Assembly (NCBI GenBank): GCA_918244965.1
Contig: CAKJYC010000049.1
Location: forward strand, 22,286 to 86,285
Direction of reading: 5' to 3'
DNA length: 64,000 nt
Source: Clostridiales bacterium
GTDB taxonomy: Bacteria > Bacillota > Clostridia > Christensenellales > CAG-138
The translations under genes and the position numbers were made by a program. This document shows positions 37,478 through 58,131 of this stretch, one piece after another. Position 1 is the first letter of the stretch, and the number at the start of each line of letters is the position of its first letter. The notes beneath the pieces are model-generated. The model was not told where the DNA came from. It did not search any database and worked only from the letters and a program-made list of their open reading frames with translations.

Positions 37478-37479
37478 TT

Positions 37480-41084: not shown

Positions 41085-41096
41085 CTTGTCCTCCTG

Positions 41097-41888
41097 TCAA
41101 CCCTTGAAGATATGCTCGTTTGCGTCGGGCTTCCACAGCCACGCGTGCTCCGGATCGTCGATGCGCGTCTTTTTCCACGGATCGCCGTCCAGGTGCCGGA
41201 TGCCCCACGCGTAGCACATGGCGTAGCCGGGCGCGGCGACCTGCGAATGGAAGCCGTGATTGATGACCGCAAGCCCGTTGTGTCCGGTTTTGAAGATCTC
41301 ACCGTTGCTGAACCCCGCGCCGAAGCCGTTCGGATAGTCGAACCGGTAGAAATAGACCTCCGGCTGCGGATGGTGGTGCGGCGGATAGCTCGACCAGCGG
41401 CCGGGGAAGTTCAGCACCTCGCCCAGCACCATGTTCGAGAACGGCGCGTTGTCATAGTCGAAGAACGTCTTGATCTCGCGGCGCATGCAGCCCATCAGCT
41501 CGCCGTTCGCGCCCGCGTGCTGCACCTGCACCGTGTCCGGCGTGTACAGCACCGGTTCGTAGTCGCGCTCGTTTGCCGTCTGCTGGATGAACAGCTCGGC
41601 GTGCCCGTGCGCTTCGACCGTGATGCGGACCCTGCGCGGACAGAGCAGGCAGTACGCCTCGTGATAAAAGCAGTCGGGACGGCTCGCTTCGACGGCCTTG
41701 TCCGCAAAGCGCAGCGTGACCGCGCCCTCGAACAGCAGCACGGCCGTTTCCTTGTCCGGCTCCTCGATCGTATAGACGTCGCCTTCCTCCATGACGAGCA
41801 GGCCCACGTCCATCTGCGTGCCGAGATCGTCGACCTTCGCGTCGATATACGCGTTGTAGCCGCGATGCAGCTCCTTTTCAAAATACAT
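41097..41888 (-). CDS. iolB: 5-deoxy-glucuronate isomerase
   Basis: 263 aa cupin. GRWSSYPPHHH..., ...HLDGDPW...DPEHAWL, as in IolB/KduI-like proteins. Confidence 0.85.
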   Translation of the reverse strand: MYFEKELHRGYNAYIDAKVDDLGTQMDVGLLVMEEGDVYTIEEPDKETAVLLFEGAVTLRFADKAVEASRPDCFYHEAYCLLCPRRVRITVEAHGHAELFIQQTANERDYEPVLYTPDTVQVQHAGANGELMGCMRREIKTFFDYDNAPFSNMVLGEVLNFPGRWSSYPPHHHPQPEVYFYRFDYPNGFGAGFSNGEIFKTGHNGLAVINHGFHSQVAAPGYAMCYAWGIRHLDGDPWKKTRIDDPEHAWLWKPDANEHIFKG

Positions 41889-41897
41889 AGCCGCGCC

Positions 41898-42806: not shown

Positions 42807-42818
42807 GGGATACTCCTT

Positions 42819-43991
42819 TCAGATGCGGGCGACGCCGCTCTTTCTTGCCGCTTCGGCAACTGCCGCCGCGACCGCCGGGCCGACGCGCTTATCAAACGCC
42901 TTCGGAATGATGTAGTCTGCGGAAAGCTCGTCGTCGGAGATCAGGTCGGCCAGCGCCTTTGCCGCCGCCATCTTCATTTCCTCGTTGATGTCGCTTGCGC
43001 GCACGTCAAACGTGCCGCGGAAGATGCCGGGGAACGCAAGGACGTTGTTGATCTGGTTCGGGTAATCGCTGCGGCCCGTCGCAATGACCTTTGCGCCGCC
43101 GGCTCTTGCGTCGTCCGGGAAGATCTCGGGCGTCGGGTTCGCGCAGGCAAAGATGATCGCGTCGCGGTTCATGGTCTTTACCATCTCGGTCGTGACCGTG
43201 CCGGGCGCCGAAACGCCGATGAACACGTCCGCGCCGACCAGCTGATCGGCAAGGGAACCGGGCTTGCGTTCGAGGTTCGTGACCTCGGCCATCTCCTCCT
43301 TGATCCAGTTCAGACCGTCGCGGCCCTTGTAGATCGCACCCTTGCGGTCGCACATCGTGATGTGACGGAAGCCTGCGGAAAGCAGCAGCTTCACGATCGA
43401 CACCGCCGCCGCGCCTGCGCCGGAGGTGACAACACGGACGTCCTCCTTTTTCTTGCCGACGACCTTCAAAGCGTTCGTGAGCCCCGCCAGCGTGATGACC
43501 GCGGTGCCGTGCTGATCGTCGTGGAAGATCGGGATGTCGCACTTTTCCTTCAGCTTGCGCTCGATCTCAAAGCAGCGCGGCGCGGAGATGTCCTCCAGAT
43601 TGATGCCGCCGAACGAGCCGGACAGCAGATACACCGCGTTGACGAACTCATCGACGTCGTGCGTCTTGATGCACAGCGGGAACGCGTCGACGTTGCCGAA
43701 CGACTTGAACAGCACGCACTTGCCCTCCATGACCGGCATGCCCGCTTCGGGGCCGATGTCGCCGAGGCCGAGCACCGCGCTGCCGTCGGTGATGACCGCG
43801 CAGAGGTTGTGACGGCGGGTCAGCTCGTAGCTCTTGTTGATGTCCTTCTGGATCTCAAGGCACGGCTGCGCGACGCCGGGAGTGTACGCAAGGCTCAGAT
43901 CGTCCTTGGTCGCGACGGGAACCGTTGCGATGACTTCGATTTTGCCCTTCCATTCTCCGTGAAGACGGAGCGATTCTTCCGCATAATTCAT
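42819..43991 (-). CDS. NAD(P)-dependent malic enzyme (short form, no PTA domain)
   Basis: 390 aa. LSLAYTPGVA, TDGSAVLGLGDIGPEAGMPVMEGK, FGGINLEDI, HDDQHGTA, GAGAAA. Confidence 0.9.
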   Translation of the reverse strand: MNYAEESLRLHGEWKGKIEVIATVPVATKDDLSLAYTPGVAQPCLEIQKDINKSYELTRRHNLCAVITDGSAVLGLGDIGPEAGMPVMEGKCVLFKSFGNVDAFPLCIKTHDVDEFVNAVYLLSGSFGGINLEDISAPRCFEIERKLKEKCDIPIFHDDQHGTAVITLAGLTNALKVVGKKKEDVRVVTSGAGAAAVSIVKLLLSAGFRHITMCDRKGAIYKGRDGLNWIKEEMAEVTNLERKPGSLADQLVGADVFIGVSAPGTVTTEMVKTMNRDAIIFACANPTPEIFPDDARAGGAKVIATGRSDYPNQINNVLAFPGIFRGTFDVRASDINEEMKMAAAKALADLISDDELSADYIIPKAFDKRVGPAVAAAVAEAARKSGVARI

Positions 43992-44021
43992 GATCGATTC
44001 TCCTTCAATGGTTTGATTTCT

Positions 44022-45272
44022 TTATGAAACGACGGTCGGCAGCGTCGAGCCGCCGTACGGCATCGCCAGCACCGTCGCGTTCGGTCCCAGTTTCAAAAAT
44101 GCGTGATCCAGCGCTTCCTGCGCGGTCTTATACGGTACAAGAAAGATCGACCGCACAAAGTCGTCGTCCAGCTCGGACACAAGATCGACCTCGGCCCGTT
44201 CCAGCACCATCGCGATCGCCGCGGCCTTGTGCCCGCCGAGACGGAATTCACGGCCGATGCGCTCGATCAGGCTGTGCGCCGAGGGCGCTTCGGTCATCCA
44301 TTGCTCGAACGTTTTTTCGCCGAGACCCTCACGGCACGAGCCGATCAGGATGATGACGCCGCCGTCGCGCACCGCGTGCTTTGCGTTGTCCAGCGCCTTC
44401 TGCGTTTGATAGAGGTTCAGGTCCTTCGGCGCGCCGCCCTGCGAAACCAGCACGATATCGGCGGGCGCAGAGAGTTCCTTGCGGTACAGCGTGTCGAGGA
44501 AGCTGCAGCCCTCGCGGTGCGCCAGTACGGCGTCGCCCGCGACGGCTTTCAGGATCTCCTTATGCTCGGAAAGCACGACGTTTACGATGAAGTCGATCCC
44601 GACCATCGCGCCGGCCTCCTCGATATCCATGCGCAGCGGGTTCGTATCGAGCGCGCCGGCCTTCGCCTCGGGCAGTACCATGCGGCTGTGGTTGGCCTGG
44701 ATCGCCGCGCGCGTGGACACGCCGGGCATGATCGCCTTTGCGCCGCCGGAATAGCCCGCAAAGTAGTGGTACTCGATGTTGCCGAGACAGATCCTGCGAT
44801 CGGCCTCCGCCACGACGCGCGTGATGTCCACGGGCGTCCCGCGCGAGGTCACGCCGTAGGAAACGCAGTCAAGGGGATCGCTGTCGACGCAGCGGATCTC
44901 GGCCCACGCGCGTTCGCCCGCAAGCCGACGCTTTTCCTCGTCGGTCTGACGCCTGTGGCTGCCGAGCGCGAACACCAGCGTGATATCCTTCGGATCCACG
45001 CCGCCCGCGTACAGCTCGTCCAGAAGGGCGGGCATGACCTTTGCGGTCGGCATCGGACGAGTGACGTCGCTCGTGACGATCGCCACCGTTTCGCCCGGAT
45101 GCACGATGTCGCGAAGCAGCGGGGTGCCGATGGGCGCCGAAAGCGCGCGTCTGACCTCCGCCTCGCCCGTAAGGCCCACCGGGACCTCGTTCGCGTGCAG
45201 CTCGCCGATCAGGTTCTGTTCCGGCACCTCGACCTCCTGAACGCCTGTGCCGAATCCGAAACGCAGCTTCAT
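44022..45272 (-). CDS. LarA-family nickel-pincer-dependent 2-hydroxyacid racemase/epimerase homolog
   Basis: 416 aa, DUF2088/LarA-like. ...IVTSDVTRP..., ALGSHR, HYFAGYSGGAKAIMPG (Lys at the position that tethers the NPN cofactor in LarA, from memory), LYQ..KAL. Confidence 0.8.
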   Translation of the reverse strand: MKLRFGFGTGVQEVEVPEQNLIGELHANEVPVGLTGEAEVRRALSAPIGTPLLRDIVHPGETVAIVTSDVTRPMPTAKVMPALLDELYAGGVDPKDITLVFALGSHRRQTDEEKRRLAGERAWAEIRCVDSDPLDCVSYGVTSRGTPVDITRVVAEADRRICLGNIEYHYFAGYSGGAKAIMPGVSTRAAIQANHSRMVLPEAKAGALDTNPLRMDIEEAGAMVGIDFIVNVVLSEHKEILKAVAGDAVLAHREGCSFLDTLYRKELSAPADIVLVSQGGAPKDLNLYQTQKALDNAKHAVRDGGVIILIGSCREGLGEKTFEQWMTEAPSAHSLIERIGREFRLGGHKAAAIAMVLERAEVDLVSELDDDFVRSIFLVPYKTAQEALDHAFLKLGPNATVLAMPYGGSTLPTVVS

Positions 45273-45275
45273 GGC

Positions 45276-46238
45276 TTACTTTCTCTTGAGCACGGCCTTC
45301 GCCTGCTGCTCGATGTGCGCGGCGGTCAGACCGAAGCGCTCCATCAGATAGCTCTGCGTGCCGACCTCGCCGAACTCGTCCTCGACCGCGACGCACGCGG
45401 CGGGGACGGGGCAGCGCTCCGCAAGCACTTCGAGAATGTTGTTGTACAGGCCGCCGTGACGGTTCGCGTTCTCGGCGACGACGACCGCGCCGCATTTTTT
45501 CGCAAACGCTTCAACGGCGTCCGCGTCGATCGGCTTGATCGTGAAGCAGTCCACGACCGCGGCGGAGATCCCCTGCGCTTCGAGGGACGCGGCCGCCTTC
45601 ATGGCCTCGTGCAGCATCAGACCTGCGGCGAAGATCACGACGTCGCTGCCGTCGCGGAGCGTGATCGCCTTGCCGATCGGAAGCTCGCTGCCGTCCGCAT
45701 AGACGCGGGCGAGCTGCTTTCTGCCGACGCGGATATACTTGACGCCGGGGCGGTTCTGACACTGGCGCAAAACGCTTGCAAGGCACGCCGGGTCGGACGC
45801 GTCGATGACGGTCGCGCCGGGCAGCGCGTTGTAGAGCGCCACATCCTCAAACGGCATGTGCGTGCCGCCGTTCATCGTGGCGGTAACGCCGGGGTCGGTG
45901 CCGATCACGGTCATGTCGTTCTTTGCATAGCCGCCGGACAGAAAGACCTGATCGTAGCAGCGGCGGGAGGCAAACGTGCCGAAGCTGTGGATGATCGGCT
46001 TGAAGCCTGCGACCGCGAGACCGGCCGCCACGCCCGCCATGTTCGACTCGGCGATGCCGCAGTCGATCGCGCGTTCGGGATTCGCCTTCGCCCACTTCAG
46101 CGTGCCGGAGCAGCTCATCAGGTCGGCGTCGAGGAAGATCGCGTTCGGGTCGTGATCCACGATGTCGGCGACCGTCGCGCCGATGACGTCCTTGCACAGA
46201 CGGGGATCCAGTTCCCCGTTATAAACGATGTTCAACAT
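45276..46238 (-). CDS. Transketolase, C-terminal (pyrimidine-binding) subunit
   Basis: 320 aa. ...AIDCGIAESNMAGVAAGLA..., ...THMPFEDVAL.... 3-nt gap from the N-terminal subunit gene. Confidence 0.9.
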   Translation of the reverse strand: MLNIVYNGELDPRLCKDVIGATVADIVDHDPNAIFLDADLMSCSGTLKWAKANPERAIDCGIAESNMAGVAAGLAVAGFKPIIHSFGTFASRRCYDQVFLSGGYAKNDMTVIGTDPGVTATMNGGTHMPFEDVALYNALPGATVIDASDPACLASVLRQCQNRPGVKYIRVGRKQLARVYADGSELPIGKAITLRDGSDVVIFAAGLMLHEAMKAAASLEAQGISAAVVDCFTIKPIDADAVEAFAKKCGAVVVAENANRHGGLYNNILEVLAERCPVPAACVAVEDEFGEVGTQSYLMERFGLTAAHIEQQAKAVLKRK

Positions 46239-46241
46239 TGC

Positions 46242-47084
46242 TCAGCCCTCCAATGCATCCAATTCCGCTTTCAGCTGCGCGGTCCAGCGCTCGAAGCGCT
46301 CGTCGTTTACCGGCATGCTGTGGTTCATCGCGGTGTTTTCGACCTCCGCGATGCCGTGGCCCTTCACGGTGTCCAGCACGATCGCGTAGGGCTTGTCGCC
46401 GCCTGCACGCGTGCGTTCGAGGGCGGCCGCGATCGCTTCAACGTCGCCGCCGTCGACCTTGACCGTGTCGAAACCGAACGCTTCCATCTTCGCGACGAAA
46501 TCGCCCATCGGCAGGACCTCGTCGAGATACCCGTCGAGCTGGCGCTTGTTCCAGTCGATCAGAACGACCAGATTTCCGAGCTTCTTCGCGCTTGCGAACA
46601 TGAAGGACTCCCAGCACTGGCCCTCGTTCGATTCGCCGTCGCCGACGATCAGAAAGACGCGGTTTTTGCGGCCCTTGATGCGATTGCCGAGCGCAAGCCC
46701 CGCCGCCTGCGAGGTGCCCTGTCCCAGCGAGCCGGTCGTCACGTCGACGCCGGGCGTCTTGGTGCGGTCGCAGTGGCTCGGAAGCCGCGTGCCGCCGCGG
46801 TTCAGGGTCTTGAGTTCCTCATACGGGAAGAACCCCTTGAGCGCGAGCGTGGCGTACACCGCCGGGCCCGCATGCCCCTTCGAGACCACGAGACAGTCGC
46901 GATCCGGCCATTTCGGGTCCTCCGGGCGGACGTTCATTTCGCGGCCGTACAGGACCGCCATCGTGTCGGCAATGCTCATCACGCCGCCGACGTGGCCCGA
47001 ACCGATCGAGTGGATCGCTTCAAGCGCGGCCATGCGGATGCGCGTCGCAAACGCCTGCAGTTGTTTTTTTTCCTGGATATCCAT
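46242..47084 (-). CDS. Transketolase, N-terminal (TPP-binding) subunit
   Basis: 280 aa. GSGHVGGVMS, SKGHAGPA, GSLGQG, GDGESNEGQ. Confidence 0.9.
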   Translation of the reverse strand: MDIQEKKQLQAFATRIRMAALEAIHSIGSGHVGGVMSIADTMAVLYGREMNVRPEDPKWPDRDCLVVSKGHAGPAVYATLALKGFFPYEELKTLNRGGTRLPSHCDRTKTPGVDVTTGSLGQGTSQAAGLALGNRIKGRKNRVFLIVGDGESNEGQCWESFMFASAKKLGNLVVLIDWNKRQLDGYLDEVLPMGDFVAKMEAFGFDTVKVDGGDVEAIAAALERTRAGGDKPYAIVLDTVKGHGIAEVENTAMNHSMPVNDERFERWTAQLKAELDALEG

Positions 47085-47093
47085 AGCTCCTCC

Positions 47094-48347
47094 TTATTGT
47101 TGCGGCAGGGTCGAACCGTGCCGCAGGGCCTTGACGACGGGCAGCTCTTCGCCGCTCAGGAAGCGGATCAGCGCGCCGCCGCCGGTGCAGATATAACCGA
47201 TCTTGTCGGTCAGCTTGTATTTTTCGGTCGCCGTGATGCTGTCGCCGCCGCCGAGGACCGTAAAGCCCTCGGTGTCCGCAAGCGCCTGCCACAGCGACTT
47301 GGTTCCGTATTCGCTCGCTTCCTGCTCGAACACGCCCATCGGGCCGTTGACGAACACCGTTTTGGCCGAAAGGATGCAGGCGCGATACTTTGCCGCAGTC
47401 GCGTGTCCGATGTCGACCGCGCCGACGTCGCTCGGCATCATGTAGATCGACGCCTCGCGCCGTTCGCCGTTTTCGACCCACGCAAGGTCGTCAGGCAGCA
47501 GGATCCTGTCGCCGAACCGCTCGTAGAGCGCCTTCGCACGGTCGAAGAACTCGGCGTAGTTCGACTTGCAGATAAACGCGCGGCTATAGCTTCCGATCTC
47601 CTGTCCGAGCGCGATCAGGAAGATGTTTGCGACCAGGCCCCCGGTCAGGATCGTATCGGCGACCCCGCGCTCCAGGACCGTCTGCATCATCAGAAACGCG
47701 TCGGAGATCTTTGCGCCGCCGAGCGCGAACACGCACGGACGGGCGGGGTCCTCCATGACGGAGGAGACGGTGCAGTATTCCTTCTCGAACAGCCTGCCCA
47801 TCGCGGACGGCAGGATCTGCTCGAACCCGCACAGGCTCGGCTGATCGCGGTGCGCGGCGGCAAACGCGTCGCACACGTACGCGTCCGCAAGCGGGGCGAG
47901 CTTCTGCACCAGCAGCGTTTTTGCCTGCTGCTCGTGCGAAAGATGCAGCTTCATTTCAAAGAGCGTCTGCTCCTCCGCGACGAAGCGCACGTTGTCCAAA
48001 AGCAAAACATCGCCATCGCAGAGATCACGGATGGCTTGTCTTGCCGCGGGGCCGCAGACGTCGTCGATCCATTTGACCTCCCGGCCGAGAAGGCGGGAGA
48101 GGACCGCGGCGTGCGGTTTGGTCGTATAAAAATTCTTGTACTCGATGTCGCTGCCCTGATGCGCCAGCAGCACGACCTTTGCGCCCTTTTCGGACAGCTC
48201 GCGGATCGTCGGCACGCAGGCCGTGATGCGGTTGATGCTTTTCAGCGTCCCCGCATCACGATCCACGGGCTGATTGATATCCACGCGGCAAAGGACCGTT
48301 TTTCCGCGCACCGAGAGTTCGTCCAGCGTTCTGATGCCGAATCGCAT
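47094..48347 (-). CDS. pgk: Phosphoglycerate kinase family protein, archaeal-type sequence
   Basis: 417 aa. RVDINQPV, LLAHQGS (canonical H(Q/L)GRP), LLLDNVRF, FVNGPMGVFE, GGGDSI. Confidence 0.8.
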   Translation of the reverse strand: MRFGIRTLDELSVRGKTVLCRVDINQPVDRDAGTLKSINRITACVPTIRELSEKGAKVVLLAHQGSDIEYKNFYTTKPHAAVLSRLLGREVKWIDDVCGPAARQAIRDLCDGDVLLLDNVRFVAEEQTLFEMKLHLSHEQQAKTLLVQKLAPLADAYVCDAFAAAHRDQPSLCGFEQILPSAMGRLFEKEYCTVSSVMEDPARPCVFALGGAKISDAFLMMQTVLERGVADTILTGGLVANIFLIALGQEIGSYSRAFICKSNYAEFFDRAKALYERFGDRILLPDDLAWVENGERREASIYMMPSDVGAVDIGHATAAKYRACILSAKTVFVNGPMGVFEQEASEYGTKSLWQALADTEGFTVLGGGDSITATEKYKLTDKIGYICTGGGALIRFLSGEELPVVKALRHGSTLPQQ

Positions 48348-48359
48348 GTGGAACCTCGC

Positions 48360-49418
48360 TTATTTCTTCTTGAATCTGCCGATCTTCAGGTATTCGTTCG
48401 TCTTTGCCGTGCCCTCTTCGCGGGTCAGCTGCATCTGCATCGCGGCGCGGATCGCGTCGATCGTTTCGGGGATCGTGACGCTCTCCTGCGGGATGTTGAT
48501 CGCGTACATGATGTCGTTGCCGCTCTCAACGATGCTGTCCTCCCACAGCCCGATCTCGTACATGTCGCCTCTGCGGTTGCCGAGATCGCGCGCGTACTTG
48601 AACAGGCTCGCGTTGCCCTTGAAGCCCTCGTCGATCGTGACGGTACGGATGCGCGGATGCGCGCGGAACGCTTCGAGCGCCATCTCGCGGGTGATCTTTT
48701 TGCCGTCTTTGGCGGTCGCCAGCACGGTGATGATGTGGCCGTGCGTGACCGGCGTGTGCACGAGGATGCCCGTCGCTTCGACGTGCGGCATGATCGTCAT
48801 CAGGTCGACCGCCTGATGCGACGGCGCCTTGTCGATCTGCAGCGCGTTGGTGAGGCCGCGGTGATAGTCGCCCGGATCCGCGACGCGGCGGATGATCGTG
48901 ATCGCGACCTTCTCGATGCCGATCGCGCGGTCAAGGCAGTCGACCGTGCGGATCAGGCCCGTCGTGTTGCAGCTGGTCAGCTTGAGGTAATCCTGACCGA
49001 CGCCCTTTTCATAGTTCGCATAGCCGTGGAAGAACACGTCCGCGACGGAGTTCTTTTCGCCGCCCTGGAAGATCGCCTTGACGCCGACCTTCTGATACAG
49101 CTCCTTGTTCTTTGCGCCGACGCCGCCCGGCGAAGAGTCGAGCATGATATCGACGCTTCTGCAAAGCTCCTCGAACGTGCCCGCAACCGGGATGTCATAG
49201 CGGTCGAACGCTTCACGGTCCGCGCCGTCGACGAGGTAGAGATTGTATTTGACGCCGTTTGCGCCGATCATGTCGTTCTCGCGCAGCGCGCGGATCGACA
49301 GTGTGGGCGCGAGGTCCGCAATGCCCACCAGCTCCATGTCGCCCTGCATGGCGACGCCGTCGGCCAGACGCTGACCGATCGTGCCGTAACCGGCGACTCC
49401 GACTCTGACTTTAGCCAT
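48360..49418 (-). CDS. gap: Type II (archaeal-type) glyceraldehyde-3-phosphate dehydrogenase family protein
   Basis: 352 aa from ATG 49418, with AAAGGAG 6 nt upstream. MAKVRVGVAGYGTIGQRLADGV...MELVG and the active-site SCNTTGL (Cys150) are hallmarks of archaeal GAPDH, not bacterial GapA (SCTTN). Confidence 0.8.
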   Translation of the reverse strand: MAKVRVGVAGYGTIGQRLADGVAMQGDMELVGIADLAPTLSIRALRENDMIGANGVKYNLYLVDGADREAFDRYDIPVAGTFEELCRSVDIMLDSSPGGVGAKNKELYQKVGVKAIFQGGEKNSVADVFFHGYANYEKGVGQDYLKLTSCNTTGLIRTVDCLDRAIGIEKVAITIIRRVADPGDYHRGLTNALQIDKAPSHQAVDLMTIMPHVEATGILVHTPVTHGHIITVLATAKDGKKITREMALEAFRAHPRIRTVTIDEGFKGNASLFKYARDLGNRRGDMYEIGLWEDSIVESGNDIMYAINIPQESVTIPETIDAIRAAMQMQLTREEGTAKTNEYLKIGRFKKK

Positions 49419-49432
49419 ATGCTGCTCCTTTC

Positions 49433-50446
49433 TCAGATCTCGTCGATGCGGACGGGACGGTTTTCCTTGAGGGACTTGCTGCACGCAAGCGCCAGCTTGA
49501 TGGACAGAAGGCCGTCCTCGATGCCGACCCACGGTTCCTTGCCGTTCTCGACGCAGTCGATGAACTCGCGGACCTCCGCCTGATACGAGCCCATGTAGCG
49601 CTCAAGGAAGAACCACAGCGGCTTTTCGCCCGTCACGCCGTCCACCGTGGACAGCACGATGTTGGACGCGGAATCGTTCGCGTTCTGCACACAGCCCTTC
49701 GAGCCGAAGACCTCGCCGCGCTGATCGTAGCCGTAGACCGCCTTTCTGGAGCCGTCGATGGTGGCAAGCGCGCCGTTAGAGAGCTTCAGCGTGATCGTCG
49801 CGGTGTCCACGTCGCCCGCTTCGCCGATCGCCGGATCGATGAGGCACGCGCCCTGCGCGTACAGCTCGACGATCTCCTGACCGGAGAGGTAGCGCACCAT
49901 GTCGAGGTCGTGGATCATCATGTCCATGAAGATGCCGCCGGAAACAGCGACGTACTTGGCGGGCGGGGGCTCCGGATCGCGCGAAGAGATGCGGACGAAC
50001 TGCACCTCGCCGATCTTGCCGTCCTCGATCGCCTTGCGCATCGCGCGGTAGTTGTGATCGTAGCGGCGGTTGAAGCCGACCTGATAGACGAGCTTCTTCG
50101 GGCTCGCCGCGAGCGCCGCCTTGACCTCTTCGATCTTTGCGATGCTCTGGTCGATCGGCTTTTCGCAGAAGATGTGCTTGCCCGCGGCGATCGCTTCAAG
50201 CGAAAGCGGGGCGTGCTGATCGGTCGACGCGCAGATCAGGACCGCGTCGATGCGGTCGTCCTCAAGGATCTTGCGATAGTCCGAATATACGTTCTCGATG
50301 CCTGCGGACTTTGCCCACGCGGCGACCTCCGGCTTGATGAACGGGTCCGCGATCGCGAGGATCCGCGCGCCGGGAACGCCGGTGAGAATGCTCTTTGCGT
50401 GGACCTGACCGATGCGGCCCGCGCCGATAATACCTACATTGACCAT
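49433..50446 (-). CDS. iolG: myo-inositol 2-dehydrogenase (Gfo/Idh/MocA family)
   Basis: GIIGAGRIGQVHAK, IFCEKPI, VGFNRRYD, SRDPEPPPAKY...GGIFMDMMIHDLDM closely resembles rhizobial IdhA/IolG from memory. Confidence 0.85.
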   Translation of the reverse strand: MVNVGIIGAGRIGQVHAKSILTGVPGARILAIADPFIKPEVAAWAKSAGIENVYSDYRKILEDDRIDAVLICASTDQHAPLSLEAIAAGKHIFCEKPIDQSIAKIEEVKAALAASPKKLVYQVGFNRRYDHNYRAMRKAIEDGKIGEVQFVRISSRDPEPPPAKYVAVSGGIFMDMMIHDLDMVRYLSGQEIVELYAQGACLIDPAIGEAGDVDTATITLKLSNGALATIDGSRKAVYGYDQRGEVFGSKGCVQNANDSASNIVLSTVDGVTGEKPLWFFLERYMGSYQAEVREFIDCVENGKEPWVGIEDGLLSIKLALACSKSLKENRPVRIDEI

Positions 50447-50497: not shown

Positions 50498-52063
50498 TCA
50501 TTCGCCGTACGGCTCGCCCTTGCCTTCGACGAGCGAGGCATAGGTGCGTTGGATCTTTGCCCAGTTCTGGTCGCGGTCGAGCGCGACGCCTCTGCCGACG
50601 CCGGACACGATGAGACCCGCGCCCTTCTGCTCAAGCATTTCGCCGAACTCGCGCAAAAGCGCGGGCGCGCTGCCGGGCTCGGTGGAGCGGCCGTCGAAGA
50701 TGACATGCACGAACACGTTTTCGACGCCCGCCTTCTTCGCCATATCGCACAGCGCGAGCGGATAGTCGATCGACCCGTGCGAGGACTTTTTCGTGAGCAG
50801 CGCAAAGAGATGCAGCGCCGTGCCGCGCTCTTTGACGCCGTTCAGCGTGTGCAGAAACACCGGGTTCTCCGCAAACGAGCCGTCCTTCATCGCGTTGTCA
50901 AGGCGCACGTCGTCCTGCAGGACCACGCGGCCGGAGCCGAGATTGATGTGGCCCGCCTCGGAATTGCCCGTCTTGCCCGCCGCAAGACCGACCGCCGGGC
51001 CGGACGCTTCGAGCTTCGCGTAGGGATACTCCCGAAGCAGCGCGTCCCACGCGGGCGTGTCCGCCGTAAAGATCGGGTTGTTGTCGGTCGGAAGGTCGAG
51101 ACCCCAGCCGTCGCAGATGAGCAGTAAAACCTTGTTCGGCTTTGCAAAGCGGAACAGCGGCGTGCCGGTCATTTCCGCGGGCGCGGGAAGGCCCATTGCG
51201 GACAGCACCGTGGGCGCGACGTCGCAGAGTCGGCCGCTCGTTTCGAGCTGTTCCGTGCCGTCGCCGATCGCGATGCAGGCGACGAGATTCGTCGTGTGCG
51301 AAACGTGCGGCTTGCCCTCCGGCGTGTGCAGAATCTCGATGTTGCCGTGGTCCGCGGTCACAAGTACAGTATAGCCCTTTTCGCGCGCGTACGCAACGGT
51401 TTTCCCGACATATTTGCTGATCGCTTCGGCTGCGACCGGCTTTGCCGCGTCCGAGGACGTATGGCCGATGACGTCGCCGTTTGCGAAGTTCGTCACGATG
51501 AAATCGTAGCCCTTGTCCAGCCCGCCGCACAGCGTTTCATACACCTCCGGCAGCTTCAGCTCCGGCACCGTTTCAAACGGCACGCCCTTGGGCGAGGGGA
51601 TGCGGATGTCCGTCTCGCCCTCGAACGGCTTCTGATTGCCGCCGTTGAAGAAGAACGTGACGTGCGCAAACTTTTCGCTCTCGGCAAGGTGCATCTGCGT
51701 CCTGCCGTTTTCACTCAGCACCTCGGCGAGCGTCTTCTGCACCTTGCTCGGCGCAAAGGCGATCGGCAGATAGGTGTATTTTTCGCTGTACATTGTCAGG
51801 ATCACGAAGTCCAGCGGATCGAGCTGCGTTCTCTCGAAGCCCTTGAACGCCGGATCGGTGAACGCATCGGTCAGCTCGGTCTCGCGCTCGCCTCTGCGGC
51901 AGCAGAAGATCACGCCGTCGCCGGGACGAACGAGACCGACCGGGCTGCCGTTTCGGTCGACAAGGTTCAACGGCTCGAAATGATACTCCGAGGCGACGGA
52001 GGCAAAGCGCTTTTGGGCAGCGCGGGCCAGCGCGTCGCCGCCGGCAAACTTGTATTCGCTCAT
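50498..52063 (-). CDS. Circularly permuted 2,3-bisphosphoglycerate-independent phosphoglycerate mutase (iPGM)-like phosphotransferase
   Basis: 521 aa from ATG 52063, with AAAGGAG 8 nt upstream. Residues 1-304 carry canonical C-terminal iPGM motifs (ESEKFAHVTFFFNGG, ANGDVIGH, TADHGN, SHTTN, EMTG). Residues 308-521 carry canonical N-terminal motifs (LLLICDGWG, GNSEAGH, LHLFALL, DGR, LDRDQNW). Confidence 0.8.
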   Translation of the reverse strand: MSEYKFAGGDALARAAQKRFASVASEYHFEPLNLVDRNGSPVGLVRPGDGVIFCCRRGERETELTDAFTDPAFKGFERTQLDPLDFVILTMYSEKYTYLPIAFAPSKVQKTLAEVLSENGRTQMHLAESEKFAHVTFFFNGGNQKPFEGETDIRIPSPKGVPFETVPELKLPEVYETLCGGLDKGYDFIVTNFANGDVIGHTSSDAAKPVAAEAISKYVGKTVAYAREKGYTVLVTADHGNIEILHTPEGKPHVSHTTNLVACIAIGDGTEQLETSGRLCDVAPTVLSAMGLPAPAEMTGTPLFRFAKPNKVLLLICDGWGLDLPTDNNPIFTADTPAWDALLREYPYAKLEASGPAVGLAAGKTGNSEAGHINLGSGRVVLQDDVRLDNAMKDGSFAENPVFLHTLNGVKERGTALHLFALLTKKSSHGSIDYPLALCDMAKKAGVENVFVHVIFDGRSTEPGSAPALLREFGEMLEQKGAGLIVSGVGRGVALDRDQNWAKIQRTYASLVEGKGEPYGE

Positions 52064-52077: not shown

Positions 52078-52854
52078 TCAATGGATGCGCGGCGTCGGGT
52101 CCTCAGCGGTTTCGGGACAGAAGCGCCCGTCGCCGGGGAAGACGCGCAGCAGCTCGTCAAAGTGATGGATGATGCAGTCGGGCCGGTTCTCCTCGGTCAG
52201 CTTGAATTCGAGCCCGCCGGGGTATTCCGCGCCGACCGTGCCGGCGAAGCAGGACTGCTTCGCGCCGATGATGTCGCGCTTCAGGTTGTCGCCGACGAAG
52301 CAGCTCTCCTCCGGCCGCACGCCGGCTTCCGACAGCGCGAGGAAATAGATCGCGGGATGCGGCTTTCGGAGCATCGTCACCGAGCTTTGCTGCACCGTGC
52401 AGAACAGGTCGCGGATGCCGTCGCGATCGAGCCACTCGTCAATCTCGACCGTGCCGATCAGGTCGCTGATGATGCCGACGAGGTAGCCGCGCGTGCGCAG
52501 CTCCTTCACGGTTTCAATGCCCTTTTCGACGACCACGCGCTCGCCCTTCGCCCTGCGGAAGCAGTAGGTCAGCTCGACGGCGGCCTTCTCGATTTTCTCA
52601 CGGTCCCATTCCGGCACGAGCCAGCGGGTCCAGAGCATCGTTTCCGGCGCTTCGCACATGTACTTCAGCGCCCATTCACGGTAGCCGTCGTAGCGCTTGT
52701 TCAGGAAATCGTAGAACGCGTCGGCGTCCATGTCGGTGCCGCACAGTTCCTTGATGCGCTCGCGCGCCTGCTTGATAAACGGACGGTTGTCCTCGTCGAC
52801 CACGCGGAATGTGCCGCCGAGATCGAGAAAGATCGCCTTGATGTTTTCTTTCAT
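52078..52854 (-). CDS. HAD-IA-like hydrolase, tandem paralog 4
   Basis: FLDLGGTF, IISD, LRKPHPAIY, VGDNLKRDI. Start at MKENIKA, with GGAGGG upstream, 2 nt after the upstream stop. Confidence 0.8.
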   Translation of the reverse strand: MKENIKAIFLDLGGTFRVVDEDNRPFIKQARERIKELCGTDMDADAFYDFLNKRYDGYREWALKYMCEAPETMLWTRWLVPEWDREKIEKAAVELTYCFRRAKGERVVVEKGIETVKELRTRGYLVGIISDLIGTVEIDEWLDRDGIRDLFCTVQQSSVTMLRKPHPAIYFLALSEAGVRPEESCFVGDNLKRDIIGAKQSCFAGTVGAEYPGGLEFKLTEENRPDCIIHHFDELLRVFPGDGRFCPETAEDPTPRIH

Positions 52855-52856
52855 AT

Positions 52857-53624
52857 TCAGACCCTCCGGACCTTGTCCCATGCGACGTGCGGCGCCTTCG
52901 GGAAGATCTCCTTGAGTTCGTTGAAGTCGAAGATGACCGCGTCGGGACGGTTCTCATCCGTGATCTTCTCCTTCGCGAGCTTCTCCGGCGTCGTGTACAG
53001 GATGAACATGCCGTAGCCCGCAAGGCGCGTGCCCTCGACGTCGCGGTTCAGGTTGTCGCCGATGTAGACGCAGCGCTCCGGGCGAACGCCCAGGAGGTCG
53101 CACGCCTTGTTGGAGATCGCGGGATCGGGCTTTCTTATGCCCTCGACGCACGAGAGCAGCACCGCGCCGAAATACTGTTCAAGCCCGTCGGCCTTGAGCC
53201 AGCGCGGGATCTCCTGCGAGGTCACGAGGTTTGAGATGATGCCGAGCTTGTAGCCGTTCGCGTACAGGTCTTTGATCGACTGCGCGCCGTTCGGGGCGAC
53301 CACGCGGCGGCCGTCCTTGTTGCGGTACTCGATCGTCAGCTCGATCGCATTCTTTTTGATCAGCTCACGGTCGTATTCGGGCGTCAGCCACTTGGTCCAA
53401 AGCTCCTCCTCCGGCGCTTCGCGCATCGTCTCGAAGCACCACTTGCGGTAGCCCGCGTAGCGGTAGTCGAGGAATTTGCAGAATTCGTCCGGGTCGCCTG
53501 TTTCGCCGCACATTTCGGCGATCTTGCGGCGCGCCTCCGCTTCAAACGCGGCGTCGCGCTCCACCAGACGCAGCGTGCCGCCGAGATCGTAGAAGATCGC
53601 GTCAAATTCTCGTTCGTTTGCCAT
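52857..53624 (-). CDS. HAD-IA-like hydrolase, tandem paralog 3
   Basis: FYDLGGTL, IISN, IRKPDPAI, IGDNLNRDV. Confidence 0.8.
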   Translation of the reverse strand: MANEREFDAIFYDLGGTLRLVERDAAFEAEARRKIAEMCGETGDPDEFCKFLDYRYAGYRKWCFETMREAPEEELWTKWLTPEYDRELIKKNAIELTIEYRNKDGRRVVAPNGAQSIKDLYANGYKLGIISNLVTSQEIPRWLKADGLEQYFGAVLLSCVEGIRKPDPAISNKACDLLGVRPERCVYIGDNLNRDVEGTRLAGYGMFILYTTPEKLAKEKITDENRPDAVIFDFNELKEIFPKAPHVAWDKVRRV

Positions 53625-53636
53625 ACTTCGTTCTCC

Positions 53637-54371
53637 TTATTTGTTTTCGTCCGAAAGGGGCGGGAAGATGTCCAGAAGCTGACCGATCCGGGTGATCGTG
53701 TAATCGGGCTGCAGAATGATTTCCTGCGGCTCGTTTTTGATCGTGTCCGGCTCGTCGATGCGGATCATCAGCGCATAGCCGGCCTTGCGCGTGCCCTCGA
53801 CGTCGCGGATCGGATTGTCGCCGACGTACGCGCACTGTTCGGGCGTCTTGCCGATCGCGCGGCAGGCGAGGTGATAGATCGCGGGGTCGGGCTTACGAAG
53901 CCGTACCTTGGAGGACAGGATGACCGTCTTGAAGTAGTGCGCCACGCCGTCGGCGATCATCCAGTCGGGGATCTCGGTCTCGGTGATCGTGTTCGCGATG
54001 ATGCCGAGCGTGTAGCCGCGGCGGTCCAGCTCGATGATCGTGGACTTCACGTCGTCGCGCGGGACGCGCCGTCCATCATGGTCGCGCCACAGACGCGTCA
54101 GTCTGCCTGCGTGCGCGCACACGCGCTCCGGATCGTAATCCGGCAGCAGGTGCTGGCTCCAGAGCTCCATCTCGCCCGCGTCAAGAAGCGTCTTTTTCAC
54201 CATGCTGCGGTACTTCTTCCAGCGCGCTTCGAGCTTCTCGAAGAACACGTCGTGCGGCTCGGTCGCGCCGACCAGCTCCATCAGTTCCCGCTCCGCCGCA
54301 TCGGAGAATTCCTTGTCCTTGATGACGATGCGCAGCGTGTTGCCGACGTCAAAGAAAATGGTGTCCGTCAT
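53637..54371 (-). CDS. HAD-IA-like hydrolase, tandem paralog 2
   Basis: FFDVGNTL, IIAN, LRKPDPAIY, VGDNPIRDV. Start at MTDTIFF, with GGAGAGAGG upstream. Confidence 0.8.
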   Translation of the reverse strand: MTDTIFFDVGNTLRIVIKDKEFSDAAERELMELVGATEPHDVFFEKLEARWKKYRSMVKKTLLDAGEMELWSQHLLPDYDPERVCAHAGRLTRLWRDHDGRRVPRDDVKSTIIELDRRGYTLGIIANTITETEIPDWMIADGVAHYFKTVILSSKVRLRKPDPAIYHLACRAIGKTPEQCAYVGDNPIRDVEGTRKAGYALMIRIDEPDTIKNEPQEIILQPDYTITRIGQLLDIFPPLSDENK

Positions 54372-54402
54372 TGTCCTCTCTCCTTTTCTGTATTGCAAAC
54401 TG

Positions 54403-55161
54403 TTATTGGTGATTCCGCTCCCGGAGGATCCCCGGCAGCTCGTTCAGTTCCCGGATCACATAATCGGCCTTCGGCGCGTCCGGCCCCTGAAAGGCGACGT
54501 CGCGGTGGGCGATCGAGGGGTTGTTGATGCGCACGATCAGGCCGAGGCCCGCATTGCGCGCGCCGAGCACATCGCGGGAGATCGTGTCGCCGACATAGCC
54601 GGTCTCCGCCGCCGTCACGCCCATGCGGGAAAACGCGATCTCAAAGATCCTCGGATCGGGCTTGCGGATCCCGGTCTCGCTCGACATCACGATGCATTCC
54701 ATGTACTGCGCGATCCCGTATTCGTTCATCATGTGCGGGACGAGCGAGGTGGAGATGATGTTGGAGATGATGCCCTGCCGGACGCCCATCGCGTGGATCT
54801 CTTTGATCGTTTCGACCAGATACGGCTTTCGCATGTTGATCATCCGCTCGTAGTCATAGAGGAAGCTCAGCTCCTCGGCGATCGGGGCAAGCCGCTCCTC
54901 GCCGATGTGAAACTCCTTGAGGTAGTATTCGTTCCAGATGACGGGGGCGGGCAACTCGGTCTTCTCGCGCTCGCCGCGGTGCTTGTACGCTTCGCCGTTC
55001 TCGCGCAGCAGCAGCTTCAGCTGTTCCGGCGTCGTGTCGAGCACGATGCCGTAATCGTTGAGCCTGCGGATCAGCCGGTCGGCAAAGCGAAGCTCCGAAT
55101 CCGCGGTGCGCGTGGCGGACTGCAGTGTTCCGCCGAGATCGTAAAGCAGCGTCGTGATCAT
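54403..55161 (-). CDS. HAD-IA-like hydrolase, tandem paralog 1 (first gene of the operon)
   Basis: LYDLGGTL, IISN, IRKPDPRIF, VGDTISRDV. Start at MITTLLYD, with GGAGG upstream. Confidence 0.8.
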   Translation of the reverse strand: MITTLLYDLGGTLQSATRTADSELRFADRLIRRLNDYGIVLDTTPEQLKLLLRENGEAYKHRGEREKTELPAPVIWNEYYLKEFHIGEERLAPIAEELSFLYDYERMINMRKPYLVETIKEIHAMGVRQGIISNIISTSLVPHMMNEYGIAQYMECIVMSSETGIRKPDPRIFEIAFSRMGVTAAETGYVGDTISRDVLGARNAGLGLIVRINNPSIAHRDVAFQGPDAPKADYVIRELNELPGILRERNHQ

Positions 55162-55190
55162 GGTTTCGCCTCCGAATTTCCCCATATTTA

Positions 55191-55241
55191 CGAAAACGTT
55201 TGCGCTATCATAATTGTAAACCGCTTACCGGTTTTTGTCAA
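55191..55241 (-). promoter_or_regulatory. Promoter plus operator of the 15-gene HAD-iol operon
   Basis: Minus strand: TTGACA (55241-55236), 17 nt, TACAAT (55218-55213), 7 nt, then GCGCAAACGTTTTCG (55205-55191). Confidence 0.7.
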
Positions 55242-55428: not shown

Positions 55429-55479
55429 TTGACAAATGGCGGGAACGGTTGTAAAATGAATTGTCTGAAAACGTTTGCA
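55429..55479 (+). promoter_or_regulatory. Promoter plus operator (cre-like) of the LacI-family regulator operon
   Basis: TTGACA (55429-55434), 17 nt, TAAAAT (55452-55457), 8 nt, then TGAAAACGTTTGCA (55466-55479). Confidence 0.7.
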
Positions 55480-55512
55480 CTGCATTTACGGAATCTGATT
55501 TGGGAGGATACT

Positions 55513-56523
55513 ATGGGCTTTGTAACGCTCAAGGACGTCGCAAAGGTCGCCGGCGTTTCCTATGCGACCGTGTCGCGCGCGCTGTCCGGCAGTCCGGAGA
55601 TCGGCGAGAACACGCGCAAACGCGTCATCCGCATCTGCGAGGAGATGGGCTATACGCCCAACGCCGTCGCGCGGTCCATGGTGATGAAGCGCACGAACAT
55701 TCTGGGGCTCATCGTCACCAGTCTCAACAACCCGTTTATGAGCGAGATGACGGCGCACATCGAGATCTATGCGCGTCAGTGCGGCTACAATCTGATGGTC
55801 TGCAACTCTTCCTACGACCGCGAGCTCGAAAAGGAGGTCTTTTCGCTGCTGGTCAGCCGCAAGGTGGACGGCGTCATCATGATCCCGGTCGGCAACGAGT
55901 CCTACGACGCGCTGAAGACGCTGACAGCGCAGGTACCGACCGTGTTCATCGGCGAAAACATGCAGGACCTTCCCGAAAACTACGTCTCGGTCGACAACGC
56001 CGCGGGCATGCAGCACGCGACCGAATACCTGTACGGGCTCGGCCACCGGAAGATCCTGTACCTCGGCGCGCGCGAAAACAGCATGACGCATAAGCTCCGC
56101 GTGGGCGGATACCTGACCGCATGCGAACGGCTCGGCATTGCGCCGCATGTACTGAACAATACGAGCCCGCGAAGCTCGTTTGAGGTCGGCTATGCGCTGG
56201 CCGACGCGTATTTTGCCGGTACGCACGACGAGACGGCGGTGCTGTGCGCGGCGGACACGCTGGCGATCGGCGTCATCAAGGCGGCGTATGAGCGCGGCGT
56301 CCGCATCCCGGAGGATATTTCGCTGATGGGCTTCGACAACCTTTCCTTCTCGGCGCTGCCGCCGATCGACCTGACGACGGTGAACCAACCGAAGCAGGCG
56401 CTTGCGGCCGCCGCGGTGGACATGCTGCTGAACCGCATCAAGAACCCCGATGCGCCGTATACCAAGACCATTCTTTCGCCGTCCGTCGTGGAGCGCAGCT
56501 CCTGCCGCCGCACGGACGCATGA
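55513..56523 (+). CDS. LacI/GalR-family transcriptional regulator
   Basis: HTH VTLKDVAKVAGVSYATVSRAL plus a periplasmic-binding-protein-like sugar-binding core. GGGAGG RBS before ATG 55513. Confidence 0.9.
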   Translation: MGFVTLKDVAKVAGVSYATVSRALSGSPEIGENTRKRVIRICEEMGYTPNAVARSMVMKRTNILGLIVTSLNNPFMSEMTAHIEIYARQCGYNLMVCNSSYDRELEKEVFSLLVSRKVDGVIMIPVGNESYDALKTLTAQVPTVFIGENMQDLPENYVSVDNAAGMQHATEYLYGLGHRKILYLGARENSMTHKLRVGGYLTACERLGIAPHVLNNTSPRSSFEVGYALADAYFAGTHDETAVLCAADTLAIGVIKAAYERGVRIPEDISLMGFDNLSFSALPPIDLTTVNQPKQALAAAAVDMLLNRIKNPDAPYTKTILSPSVVERSSCRRTDA

Positions 56524-56540
56524 ATACAGAGGAGGGGACT

Positions 56541-57260
56541 ATGTACCGTTACGAACTGCATCTGCATACCGACGAATCCAGCAACTGCGGCCACGTGCCC
56601 GCCGCCGATCAGGTCAAAACCTATCGGGCGCTCGGCTACACGGGGATCTGCGTGACCGACCATCTGCACACCGCGCAGATCGCGCACTACAACGTGCCGG
56701 ACGACTGGACCGCGATCGTCGACCGCTATCTTGCGGGCTATCGCGCCGCGAAGGCGGCGGGGGACGCCTCAGGGCTTGACGTCATCTTCGGTGTCGAGCT
56801 GCGTTTCCCGGAAAACGACAGCGATTATCTGATCTACGGGATCGACGAGCAGTGGCTGTACGACCATCCGTGGATCACGAAAATGGACCATCGATCCTTC
56901 TTTGACCGGTTCCGCGACGAGGTGCTGATCATCCACGCGCACCCGTACCGCAACGGCAACGACGTGGTTTTCTGGGACTGCGTGCACGGCGTCGAGATCG
57001 TCAATATGAACCCGCGTCACGACAACCGCAACGCGCTTGCGTTCGGGCTTGTCAAGGCGCATCCGTACCTGCTGCGCATGGTCGGCTCCGACGCGCATCA
57101 GATCGGCGACGAGGGCCGCGCGGCGATCCTGACCGAACGGCGCGTGCGCGATTCGTATGAAATGAAGGACCTGCTTGTGTCGAAACAGTACAAGAACTGG
57201 AGCGCAGAGGCAGACGGGGAACGGATCATCCGGGAAAGCGAGGAAACACCGTATGTTTGA
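56541..57260 (+). CDS. PHP-domain metal-dependent phosphoesterase
   Basis: MYRYELHLHTDESSNCG, ...CVTDH..., ...IHAHPYR..., ...GSDAH.... GGAGGGG RBS. Confidence 0.75.
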   Translation: MYRYELHLHTDESSNCGHVPAADQVKTYRALGYTGICVTDHLHTAQIAHYNVPDDWTAIVDRYLAGYRAAKAAGDASGLDVIFGVELRFPENDSDYLIYGIDEQWLYDHPWITKMDHRSFFDRFRDEVLIIHAHPYRNGNDVVFWDCVHGVEIVNMNPRHDNRNALAFGLVKAHPYLLRMVGSDAHQIGDEGRAAILTERRVRDSYEMKDLLVSKQYKNWSAEADGERIIRESEETPYV

Positions 57261-58131
57261 TACCATGATCATCGGGCAGATCACGCTCGACCACAACATC
57301 GACTTTGACGGCCGTGAGGAGTTCATCAACGGCGGCGCGGTCACGTTTTCGGGCTATGCCGCGGCGGCGACCGGACGCTCGGTCGCGGTCGTGCCGAAGG
57401 GCGATACCAAGGTCATCGACCCGTTCAAAGTCTTTGCCGAAAGCCGGGTCGAGAAGGTCTTTGCGGTCGAGTCCGATACGTATACCGAGATGGAGAATAC
57501 CTACTTCACGGCGGACCGCGAACGCCGCCGCAGCCTGAACACAAGGGGCATCGAGCCGTACAAGCCGTCCGATCTGCCCGACGAGCAGGCGAAGATCTAT
57601 CATCTCGGCGGACTGGTCGCGGGCGATTTTCCGCTTGCGTTCGTCGAGGCGTGCGCCGCGCGCGGCGACGTCGGACTGGACGTGCAGGGCATGATGCGCT
57701 TCCGCAACGACGACGGCACGCTGGAGCTGCGCGACTGGCCGGAGAAGCAGCAGTGCCTGCCGCTGATCCGCTACCTCAAGACCGACGCGGCCGAGGCCGA
57801 GATGCTGACCGGAACCGCCGACCGCGAAAAAGCGGCGTTTCAGCTTTGCGCATGGGGCGCGAAGGAGGTCCTGATCACGCACAACACCGAAGCGATCGTC
57901 TGCGACGGCGAACGGATCTACCGCGCGCCGCTGCGCCCGCGCAATCTGTCCGGCCGCACCGGCCGGGGCGACACGACGTTTGCGGGCTATCTTTGCGAAC
58001 GTCTGAGCCACGATATCCCGACCGCGCTCGAATTTGCGGCGGCGCTGGTGTCGCTGAAGATGGAGACGCCAGGTCCGTTCAAGGGCACGCGCGACGACGT
58101 GCTGGCCTACATCGAGCGGTTCTACCGCTGA
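57253..58131 (+). CDS. Divergent PfkB/ribokinase-family carbohydrate kinase (short; not IolC-like)
   Basis: 292 aa. ...NGGAVTFSG..., ...LKTDAAEAEMLTG..., GRTGRGDTTFAGY (anion-hole/catalytic Asp motif). Overlaps the upstream stop by 8 nt. Confidence 0.7.
   Translation: MFDTMIIGQITLDHNIDFDGREEFINGGAVTFSGYAAAATGRSVAVVPKGDTKVIDPFKVFAESRVEKVFAVESDTYTEMENTYFTADRERRRSLNTRGIEPYKPSDLPDEQAKIYHLGGLVAGDFPLAFVEACAARGDVGLDVQGMMRFRNDDGTLELRDWPEKQQCLPLIRYLKTDAAEAEMLTGTADREKAAFQLCAWGAKEVLITHNTEAIVCDGERIYRAPLRPRNLSGRTGRGDTTFAGYLCERLSHDIPTALEFAAALVSLKMETPGPFKGTRDDVLAYIERFYR

Follow-up and report, generated by a model that had tools for sequence, protein, structure and literature searches.

The 2,3-bisphosphoglycerate-independent phosphoglycerate mutase (iPGM, GpmI) belongs to textbook glycolysis and is targeted by drug development against nematodes and trypanosomatids. 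In its canonical chain, represented by the PDB entries 1EJJ, 1O98 and 5VPU and by the family TIGR01307, an N-terminal phosphatase segment is followed by an inserted transferase domain and then by a C-terminal phosphatase segment. This order is not followed in the product of the gene described here, which lies in a 64,000-nt stretch of contig CAKJYC010000049.1 from a Clostridiales bacterium (assembly GCA_918244965.1); this whole stretch is referred to as the window, and all coordinates are window positions. The open reading frame, on the minus strand (a point that the initial annotation did not give), specifies a complete enzyme with the two domains of the iPGM fold, which is part of the alkaline-phosphatase superfamily. 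Its chain is circularly permuted: it begins and ends in a loop at the surface of the transferase domain, the break following the equivalent of Geobacillus residue ~213.

When the protein is compared by phmmer with PDB sequences, the Geobacillus stearothermophilus iPGM (1ejj) is matched with E = 1.5e-105 in two stretches whose order is swapped, query residues 311-519 corresponding to 1ejj 5-213 and query residues 31-303 to 1ejj 235-508. The same two Pfam domains are present as in GpmI, with 39-42% identity to the solved enzymes over both halves. Metalloenzyme (PF01676, 181 bits) and iPGM_N (PF06415, 145 bits) are each split into two stretches, and the match to iPGM_N is interrupted near position 130 of the 217 in the profile, indicating that the new termini fall inside the transferase domain. 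An identical swapped order is obtained with TIGR01307 (449 bits, cutoff 331), and the score against the stricter equivalog NF003897 is 388 for a cutoff of 862. As established by tblastn with two canonical iPGMs, both halves are read in one frame that is stop-free across the junction, and no second iPGM-like gene is found in the window. The initial annotation had proposed a circular permutation with a junction near 51148 and termini inside the transferase domain; phmmer, Pfam and TIGR01307 all agree with it, the domain order being inverted relative to GpmI and not colinear with it. Every motif it listed is present at the position given, and the retention of the Ser nucleophile and of the metal ligands, which it also put forward, is borne out by the alignment.

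The permutation has left the enzyme complete. In a MAFFT alignment of in-silico un-permuted sequences with canonical iPGMs, the 'EYHFEP' of the new N-terminus pairs with the canonical 'DEFVxP'. As residues 1-30 are homologous to canonical residues 214-234, no canonical segment has been lost. The new C-terminus lies just past the helix '...Y.SLV.G.G..Y', at 1ejj residue ~213, a breakpoint common to all 15 permuted representatives presented below. The junction is 7 residues long, exactly as many as the 3 + 4 residues by which the ends of 1ejj extend beyond the alignment, indicating that the old termini are fused head-to-tail with no added linker; such a pattern would be as expected after tandem duplication and trimming. 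Segment 31-303 bears the equivalents of R261/R264, K336, D403, H407, D444, H445 and H462, and segment 311-519 those of D12, Ser62, H123, R153, R185 and R191. The predicted nucleophile, Ser368, corresponds to Ser62 of 1ejj and is invariant across all 86 aligned sequences, its column holding Ala in the S62A mutant entry 1o99.

The predicted structure points in the same direction. An AlphaFold2 model built from a 104-sequence alignment reaches a pLDDT of 92.6 and a pTM of 0.83, with values below 70 only at the extreme termini. The junction is ordered, with a pLDDT of 98 across residues 291-320, and a helix is formed at residues 9-20 of the new N-terminus. When the model is compared with the PDB by Foldseek, iPGM structures only are retrieved at E <= 0.001, the best matches being 1o99 and 1ejj (E ~1e-19, 273 aligned columns, root-mean-square deviation 2.6-2.7 Å, TM 0.48-0.49). 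Every solved iPGM retrieved aligns over about half of the chain only, as a sequential aligner would give for a permuted protein and as expected if the solved iPGMs all have the canonical order. Domains, alignment, model and Foldseek matches thus all display the core fold of the alkaline-phosphatase superfamily, with its bimetal site and Ser nucleophile.

Is the permutation real, or could it be due to misassembly, or to two gene fragments being fused by a frameshift? The chance of such an artefact appears negligible. Apart from the single stop-free frame and the confidently modelled junction, a search of 5.8 billion proteins returns at least 120 matches, nearly all colinear with the query over ~100% of its length; the matches listed are 59-89% identical and ~521 aa long, and more than 100 are full-length colinear homologues. 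A genome scan, with one genome per species, reveals 75 loci from independent assemblies with the same order and junction. They come from rumen, horse, chicken, mouse, human gut and digester assemblies and belong to Clostridia/Christensenellales, Lachnospiraceae, Oscillospiraceae, Bianqueaceae, Peptococcaceae, Sphaerochaetaceae/Spirochaetales and Anaerolineaceae. Two of them, in the isolate-derived Clostridiaceae bacterium strain 9 and Clostridium sp. CAG:1024, are not labelled as metagenome-assembled genomes. Finally, an exhaustive phmmer search against 1.84 billion representatives at 50% identity gives, among its best 150 matches, 15 full-length permuted proteins, 130 canonical ones and 5 fragments, the permuted ones extending down to 34% identity. 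The misassembly envisaged in the initial annotation is thus excluded, and the homologues with the same permutation that it called for do exist. Public records list these proteins either as '2,3-bisphosphoglycerate-independent phosphoglycerate mutase' or under the name 'alkaline phosphatase family protein', and searches of 8 million full-text papers returned no description of a permuted iPGM.

The permuted proteins are of two kinds, which are distinguished when the sequences are un-permuted in silico and aligned with 60 canonical representatives, the active-site columns being tabulated. D12, S62, H66, H123, R185, R191, R261, R264, K336, D403, H407, D444, H445 and H462 are kept in every aligned sequence. 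The window protein itself retains the metal ligands D12, D403, H407, D444, H445 and H462 together with Ser62, as well as the basic or His residues H123, R153, R185, R191, R261, R264 and K336, which we take from the 1EJJ and 1EQJ papers to be in contact with the substrate; all these residues are identical to those of GpmI. Three permuted proteins (P0132, P0134 and P0160) have the same breakpoint and head-to-tail junction as the window protein but, unlike it, retain GVHS, DGRD, RYY and NFRxDR, the motifs of the canonical pocket. They are 44-46% identical to canonical iPGMs, as these are to one another, and nest among them in an unrooted neighbour-joining tree (100 bootstraps). These three are probably ordinary phosphoglycerate mutases (PGMs) with a permuted chain, and some organisms thus seem to run glycolysis with a permuted iPGM. 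The existence of such forms indicates that permutation by itself does not imply a new function. As for the gene encoding P0160 (locus L085, 8001-9626), it overlaps the end of pgi by 4 nt, in a housekeeping neighbourhood.

The window protein and the remaining permuted representatives make up one deep clade in the same neighbour-joining tree (100/100 bootstraps), which is not grouped within canonical iPGMs. When the 60 canonical iPGMs and the 3 permuted proteins with canonical pockets are taken together as a conservation reference, this main clade departs from it in a fixed manner at 13 positions whose conservation within these 63 sequences is 79-100%: A24P, V64A, G121S, V122S, S124G, D154S, M189L, E231Y, N259C, F260R, D263E, T334S and M404V. 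Ten of the 13 are directly beside catalytic or substrate-contact residues. In addition, Y186/Y187 are replaced by Gly and an aliphatic residue, so that the near-invariant D154, N259, G121/V122/S124, Y186/Y187, M189 and D263 are found as S, C, S/S/G, G/V, L and E. In net terms, the pocket has lost an acidic side chain and two aromatic rings and has gained an Arg, to which the subfamily of the window protein adds two Lys. Given the roles presumed for these residues, the changes fit a bulkier, more anionic substrate. The name iPGM carried in public records is probably wrong for the main clade. The window protein itself descends from an iPGM and probably works like one.

Other members of the superfamily are more distant. 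DeoB and the archaeal ApgM share an alkaline-phosphatase-type core with the window protein, and illustrate that this superfamily yields sugar-phosphate mutases, but they have a different cap or transferase domain. Membership of either family is rejected by the profile scores, which are 18.5 bits for phosphopentomutase (NF009049, cutoff 254) and 21.8 for ApgM (TIGR00306, cutoff 320).

The genetic context of the window protein also departs from that of GpmI, as it consists of HAD phosphatase and inositol genes, and not of gap-pgk-tpi-eno (Table 1). The permuted gene is the fifth of a tightly packed 15-gene operon on the minus strand, with gaps of -25 to 51 nt, in the order: four HAD-IA genes, the permuted gene, iolG, GAPDH, PGK, a split transketolase, LarAH6, malic enzyme, iolE, an iolB-like gene and iolD. 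The four HAD genes upstream and the iolG equivalog downstream are placed as the initial annotation had described. The sequence AAAGGAG, read directly, ends 8 nt 5' of the ATG of the permuted gene, and the overlap of this ribosome-binding site with the stop codon of the fourth HAD gene suggests translational coupling between the two genes. In all four HAD proteins the nucleophilic Asp and motifs II-IV are intact, and motif I reads D-x-G-x-T, a Gly replacing the general acid/base at Asp+2. GAPDH is of the archaeal-type, type II form (NF003251, 394 bits), and LarAH6 is a malate racemase of that family (NF052593, 558 bits). No enolase gene is present in the operon; iolC, iolJ and iolA are not seen there either, iolG, iolE, iolD and the iolB-like gene being present. 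A divergent set comprises the genes for a LacI-family regulator, a PHP protein and a PfkB-family kinase, as well as an MFS transporter. At the other end of the operon, the 12-bp hairpin likely acts as a bidirectional terminator.

Table 1. Features of the window around the permuted gene; positions are those of the 64,000-nt window.
Feature	Position	Strand	Remarks
Circularly permuted iPGM-family protein, complete open reading frame	50498..52063	-	ATG at 52063, stop included at 50498, 521 aa
Ribosome-binding site AAAGGAGAA	52070..52078	-	overlaps stop codon of fourth HAD gene; sequence read directly
Residues 1-30, new N-terminus	51974..52063	-	helix homologous to canonical iPGM ~214-234
Residues 31-303, canonical 235-508	51155..51973	-	last third of transferase domain and C-terminal phosphatase part
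Junction, residues 304-310 (FRFAKPN)	51134..51154	-	former C-terminus to former N-terminus
Residues 311-519, canonical 5-213	50507..51133	-	N-terminal phosphatase segment and first ~130 positions of transferase domain
Codon of Ser368, predicted phosphoserine nucleophile	50960..50962	-	Ser62 of 1ejj
Four tandem HAD-IA paralogues	52078..55185	-	54403-55185, 53637-54398, 52857-53624, 52078-52881
iolG, inositol 2-dehydrogenase	49433..50446	-	directly downstream; TIGR04380 448 bits, cutoff 355
Rest of 15-gene operon (GAPDH to iolD)	39162..49418	-	
Promoter-like TTGACA-17-TACAAT	55213..55241	-	5' of first HAD gene; 11/12 consensus matches; consensus match only
LacI-family regulator, divergent	55429..56523	+	true start probably downstream of listed TTG
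PHP-domain phosphoesterase-like protein	56520..57260	+	
PfkB-family kinase, TM0415 homologue	57253..58131	+	RxGRGD signature; in divergent LacI-PHP-kinase unit
12-bp hairpin between convergent iolD and ABC ATPase genes	39120..39146		consensus match only
ABC importer	34229..39102	+	lipoprotein binding protein, fused double permease (609 aa), ATPase

The four HAD paralogues are 24-29% identical among themselves. For the third, identity is 81-100% in nearly every locus where it is present, exceeding that of the permuted enzyme (59-89%) in almost all of these loci; the first is only 45-78% identical across loci.

The conservation of this context is revealed when the operon proteins are searched by tblastn against the 75 loci, counts being given over the loci with enough sequence. 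Of 52 loci, 50 have at least three HAD genes immediately 5' of the permuted gene, and 44 have all four. The LacI regulator is present in 37/41 loci, the PfkB-family kinase in 35/41, the PHP protein in 31/41 and iolG in 38/45; the GAPDH paralogue, like PGK, is found in 30/45, and when only the 33 loci whose downstream sequence extends for at least 9 kb are counted, GAPDH is found in 23. These counts indicate that the linkage to the HAD, PHP and kinase genes is tighter than that to GAPDH and PGK. The contigs carrying P0123, P0126, P0130 and P0132 are too short for their context to be read.

Some loci carry the module in other surroundings. In L076 (11622-17235), the HAD and permuted-enzyme module, which also includes PHP, is followed by genes for UxaE, a Zn-dependent alcohol dehydrogenase, a creatininase-like protein, AP_endonuc_2 and GFO/IDH. 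We take this gene set to be the make-up of the Thermotoga-type inositol pathway (the IolM/N/O route of Thermotoga maritima), said to have been described by Rodionova et al. in 2013. As the module is thus found with two inositol pathways that are not homologous to each other, it should act upstream of both, delivering a substrate common to them. In L032 the module is found without catabolic genes within 10 kb. Importers are another recurrent neighbour, organophosphate-type ABC importers (Fe3+/AfuA) with fused permeases adjoining the module in ~19 other loci. In L083 (3064-9419) and L056 (1395-11572), a LysR regulator and an AfuA/Fe3+-type importer accompany one or two permuted genes without HAD genes, the two permuted paralogues of L056 (47% and 62% identical to the query) flanking the importer. 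Two CorC/CNNM Mg-efflux genes follow the permuted gene in L032 (11697-14332), and an MgtC gene is present in L076 (4901-5593); weakly suggestive as they are, these Mg-handling neighbours would be meaningful if the imported substrate were a metal chelate.

The PfkB-family kinase of the divergent unit matches TM0415 of T. maritima (PDB 5ysp) with E = 4.8e-36. TM0415 is also located in an inositol operon, and to our knowledge neither a permuted iPGM nor a HAD array has been reported with it. TM0415 is a PPi (pyrophosphate)-dependent myo-inositol 1-kinase, whose PPi specificity is set by K171, F221, R229, R232 and M266 together with an RxGRGD motif, PPi-dependent kinases being, as a general statement, reversible (PMC5931981). 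Four of the five signature residues are shared by the window kinase, which has K, L, R, R and M at these positions (F221 being replaced by Leu) and the motif 'GRTGRGD'.

Taken together, the remodelled pocket and the genetic context lead us to propose, tentatively and with slightly less than an even chance of being right, that the permuted enzyme acts on an inositol phosphate, as a cytoplasmic mutase or phosphatase feeding inositol catabolism. Under this proposal, it would keep the iPGM mechanism, with a metal-assisted phosphoserine intermediate in a closed two-domain state, on a phosphoester that would be larger and more anionic than 3-phosphoglycerate (3-PG) or 2-phosphoglycerate (2-PG). The most likely substrate would be a phytate-derived inositol phosphate, imported from the rumen or gut. 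The enzyme might shift a phosphate between neighbouring ring hydroxyls, e.g. converting inositol 2-phosphate, Ins(2)P, into Ins(1)P or Ins(3)P; or else it might hydrolyse the phosphoester; the retention of the whole transferase domain and of the hinge favours transfer over simple hydrolysis. Its partners would be the PHP protein, the four HAD phosphatases transcribed with it and the inositol kinase of the PPi-dependent type, the latter possibly working in reverse (InsP + Pi -> inositol + PPi), and the free myo-inositol released would be passed to IolG and to the downstream catabolic genes.

The complete breakdown of phytate is reported to pass through Ins(2)P, and gut bacteria that perform it, besides those already identified, are reported not to be known (PMC12482443). 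A version in which Ins(2)P is converted to Ins(1)P or Ins(3)P is attractive because of this intermediate and of the specificity of TM0415 for the 1-position. The enzyme would then be the first inositol-phosphate phosphomutase, relocating to an adjacent hydroxyl, through a phosphoserine intermediate, the recalcitrant 2-phosphate that is axial in Ins(2)P, or else one carried by a higher inositol phosphate, but this more precise assignment is rather unlikely to be the correct one. If it were, the relocated phosphate would become removable by the reverse action of the PPi-dependent kinase or by one of the HAD enzymes.

The remaining genes of the operon could fit such a route. In place of iolC, iolJ and iolA, it contains at 42819-49418 (minus strand) the split transketolase, GAPDH, PGK, the racemase and malic enzyme, with iolE, iolB and iolD at 39162-42806. 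According to our own mapping of carbons and stereochemistry, the action of transketolase on 2-deoxy-5-keto-D-gluconate (DKG) would give D-malate semialdehyde, a carboxylate analogue of glyceraldehyde 3-phosphate, which GAPDH and PGK could turn into D-malate and ATP. The racemase and malic enzyme would then yield pyruvate, resulting in an ATP-yielding inositol pathway that is undescribed in the searchable literature. If the enzyme were such an inositol-phosphate phosphomutase, the 15-gene operon would supply all the cytoplasmic steps that lead to pyruvate from inositol phosphates derived from phytate and imported, with energy conserved twice, as PPi from phosphoester cleavage and as ATP from the D-malate-semialdehyde GAPDH/PGK step. 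An early PPi-dependent phosphorylation of inositol was also considered as a source of DKG-6-phosphate, and is rejected, as the carbon that is phosphorylated by IolC is the one that is oxidised by IolG.

Several observations weigh against an inositol-phosphate substrate. All the basic residues are retained and the TIGR01307 score is above its cutoff, which is compatible with phosphoglycerate activity, and GAPDH and PGK paralogues are found in the same operon in most close relatives. No recognisable phytase gene is seen in the window or in the examined flanks, no record that such bacteria take up inositol phosphates is found in the searchable literature, and the binding protein of the window importer (34229-35569) has no relative in Pfam or in the PDB. 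The retained residues, the TIGR01307 score and the GAPDH and PGK paralogues would rather suit a genuine 3-PG/2-PG mutase with a permuted chain, serving the GAPDH-PGK branch or being the sole PGM of the cell. The 39-42% identity to solved iPGMs, the complete set of catalytic residues and the position of type II GAPDH and PGK, two and three genes downstream, all go in this direction, as does the existence of permuted proteins with a canonical pocket, one of them encoded beside pgi, since permutation is thereby compatible with the canonical reaction. We nevertheless consider this explanation quite improbable: residues conserved at 79-100%, D154, N259, V122, M189 and D263 among them, are replaced and fixed in a phylogenetically separate clade, and the score for NF003897 is below its cutoff (388 vs 862). 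Furthermore, the coupling to the HAD genes is much tighter, GAPDH/PGK being missing in 10 of the 33 loci with at least 9 kb downstream, the operon is without enolase, and relatives stand alone beside ABC importers under LysR control.

Alternatively, the enzyme could act, as a mutase or a phosphatase, on another phosphorylated intermediate of the operon pathway, e.g. a C4 or C6 acid bearing a phosphate (2-phospho-D-malate, phospho-deoxy-ketogluconate), or on an imported sugar or polyol phosphate. Two arginines that presumably bind the carboxylate of 3-PG are kept in a pocket that has gained positive charge, which would suit a phospho-dicarboxylate, and malate-type intermediates are produced by the operon, as indicated by LarAH6 and malic enzyme. 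Sugar phosphates, for their part, are known AfuABC substrates, and could be taken up by the AfuA-type importers found beside relatives of the gene. Against this alternative stand the module of L076, attached to a non-homologous inositol pathway that is devoid of GAPDH, PGK and LarA, and that of L032 with its lack of nearby catabolic genes; both contexts indicate a substrate that should come before inositol and not after it. The kinase conserved with the module is of the PPi type specific for myo-inositol, which also counts against this second alternative, and the latter seems unlikely. As for the hint given in the initial annotation, that the substrate might be something other than 3-PG, it receives indirect support from the pocket clade, from the linkage to HAD and kinase genes and from the second inositol pathway; an inositol phosphate would remain the preferred candidate, the function being deduced from sequence and context.

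Whatever the substrate, a natural and widespread permutation of iPGM reveals where this fold tolerates new termini, and the permuted forms with canonical and with remodelled pockets provide a natural series in which permutation can be followed alongside a change of function. If the inositol-phosphate proposal is true, the cluster would represent a missing cytoplasmic system for phytate products in rumen and gut bacteria, carried by Clostridia, Lachnospiraceae, Oscillospiraceae and Sphaerochaetaceae. It would then bear on the question of which bacteria, besides Mitsuokella, complete the degradation of phytate (PMC12482443). Searches of the same 8 million papers returned nothing on the gene cluster or on imported inositol phosphates.

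Two further observations concern the surroundings of the permuted genes. In L082 (66-7795), a relative with 53% identity is followed by genes for an ApgM-like protein (Metalloenzyme and PhosphMutase), a PRK-family kinase, LacI and an iolB-like protein, so that two different mutase-like genes of the alkaline-phosphatase superfamily stand side by side. In the window importer, the ATPase is 540 aa long, an insertion of ~90 residues separating the halves of the ABC domain, and the binding protein displays marginal similarity only to those of L068 and L056. A Cof-type HAD phosphatase gene (Hydrolase_3), at 33198-34025 on the minus strand, adjoins the gene for this binding protein.

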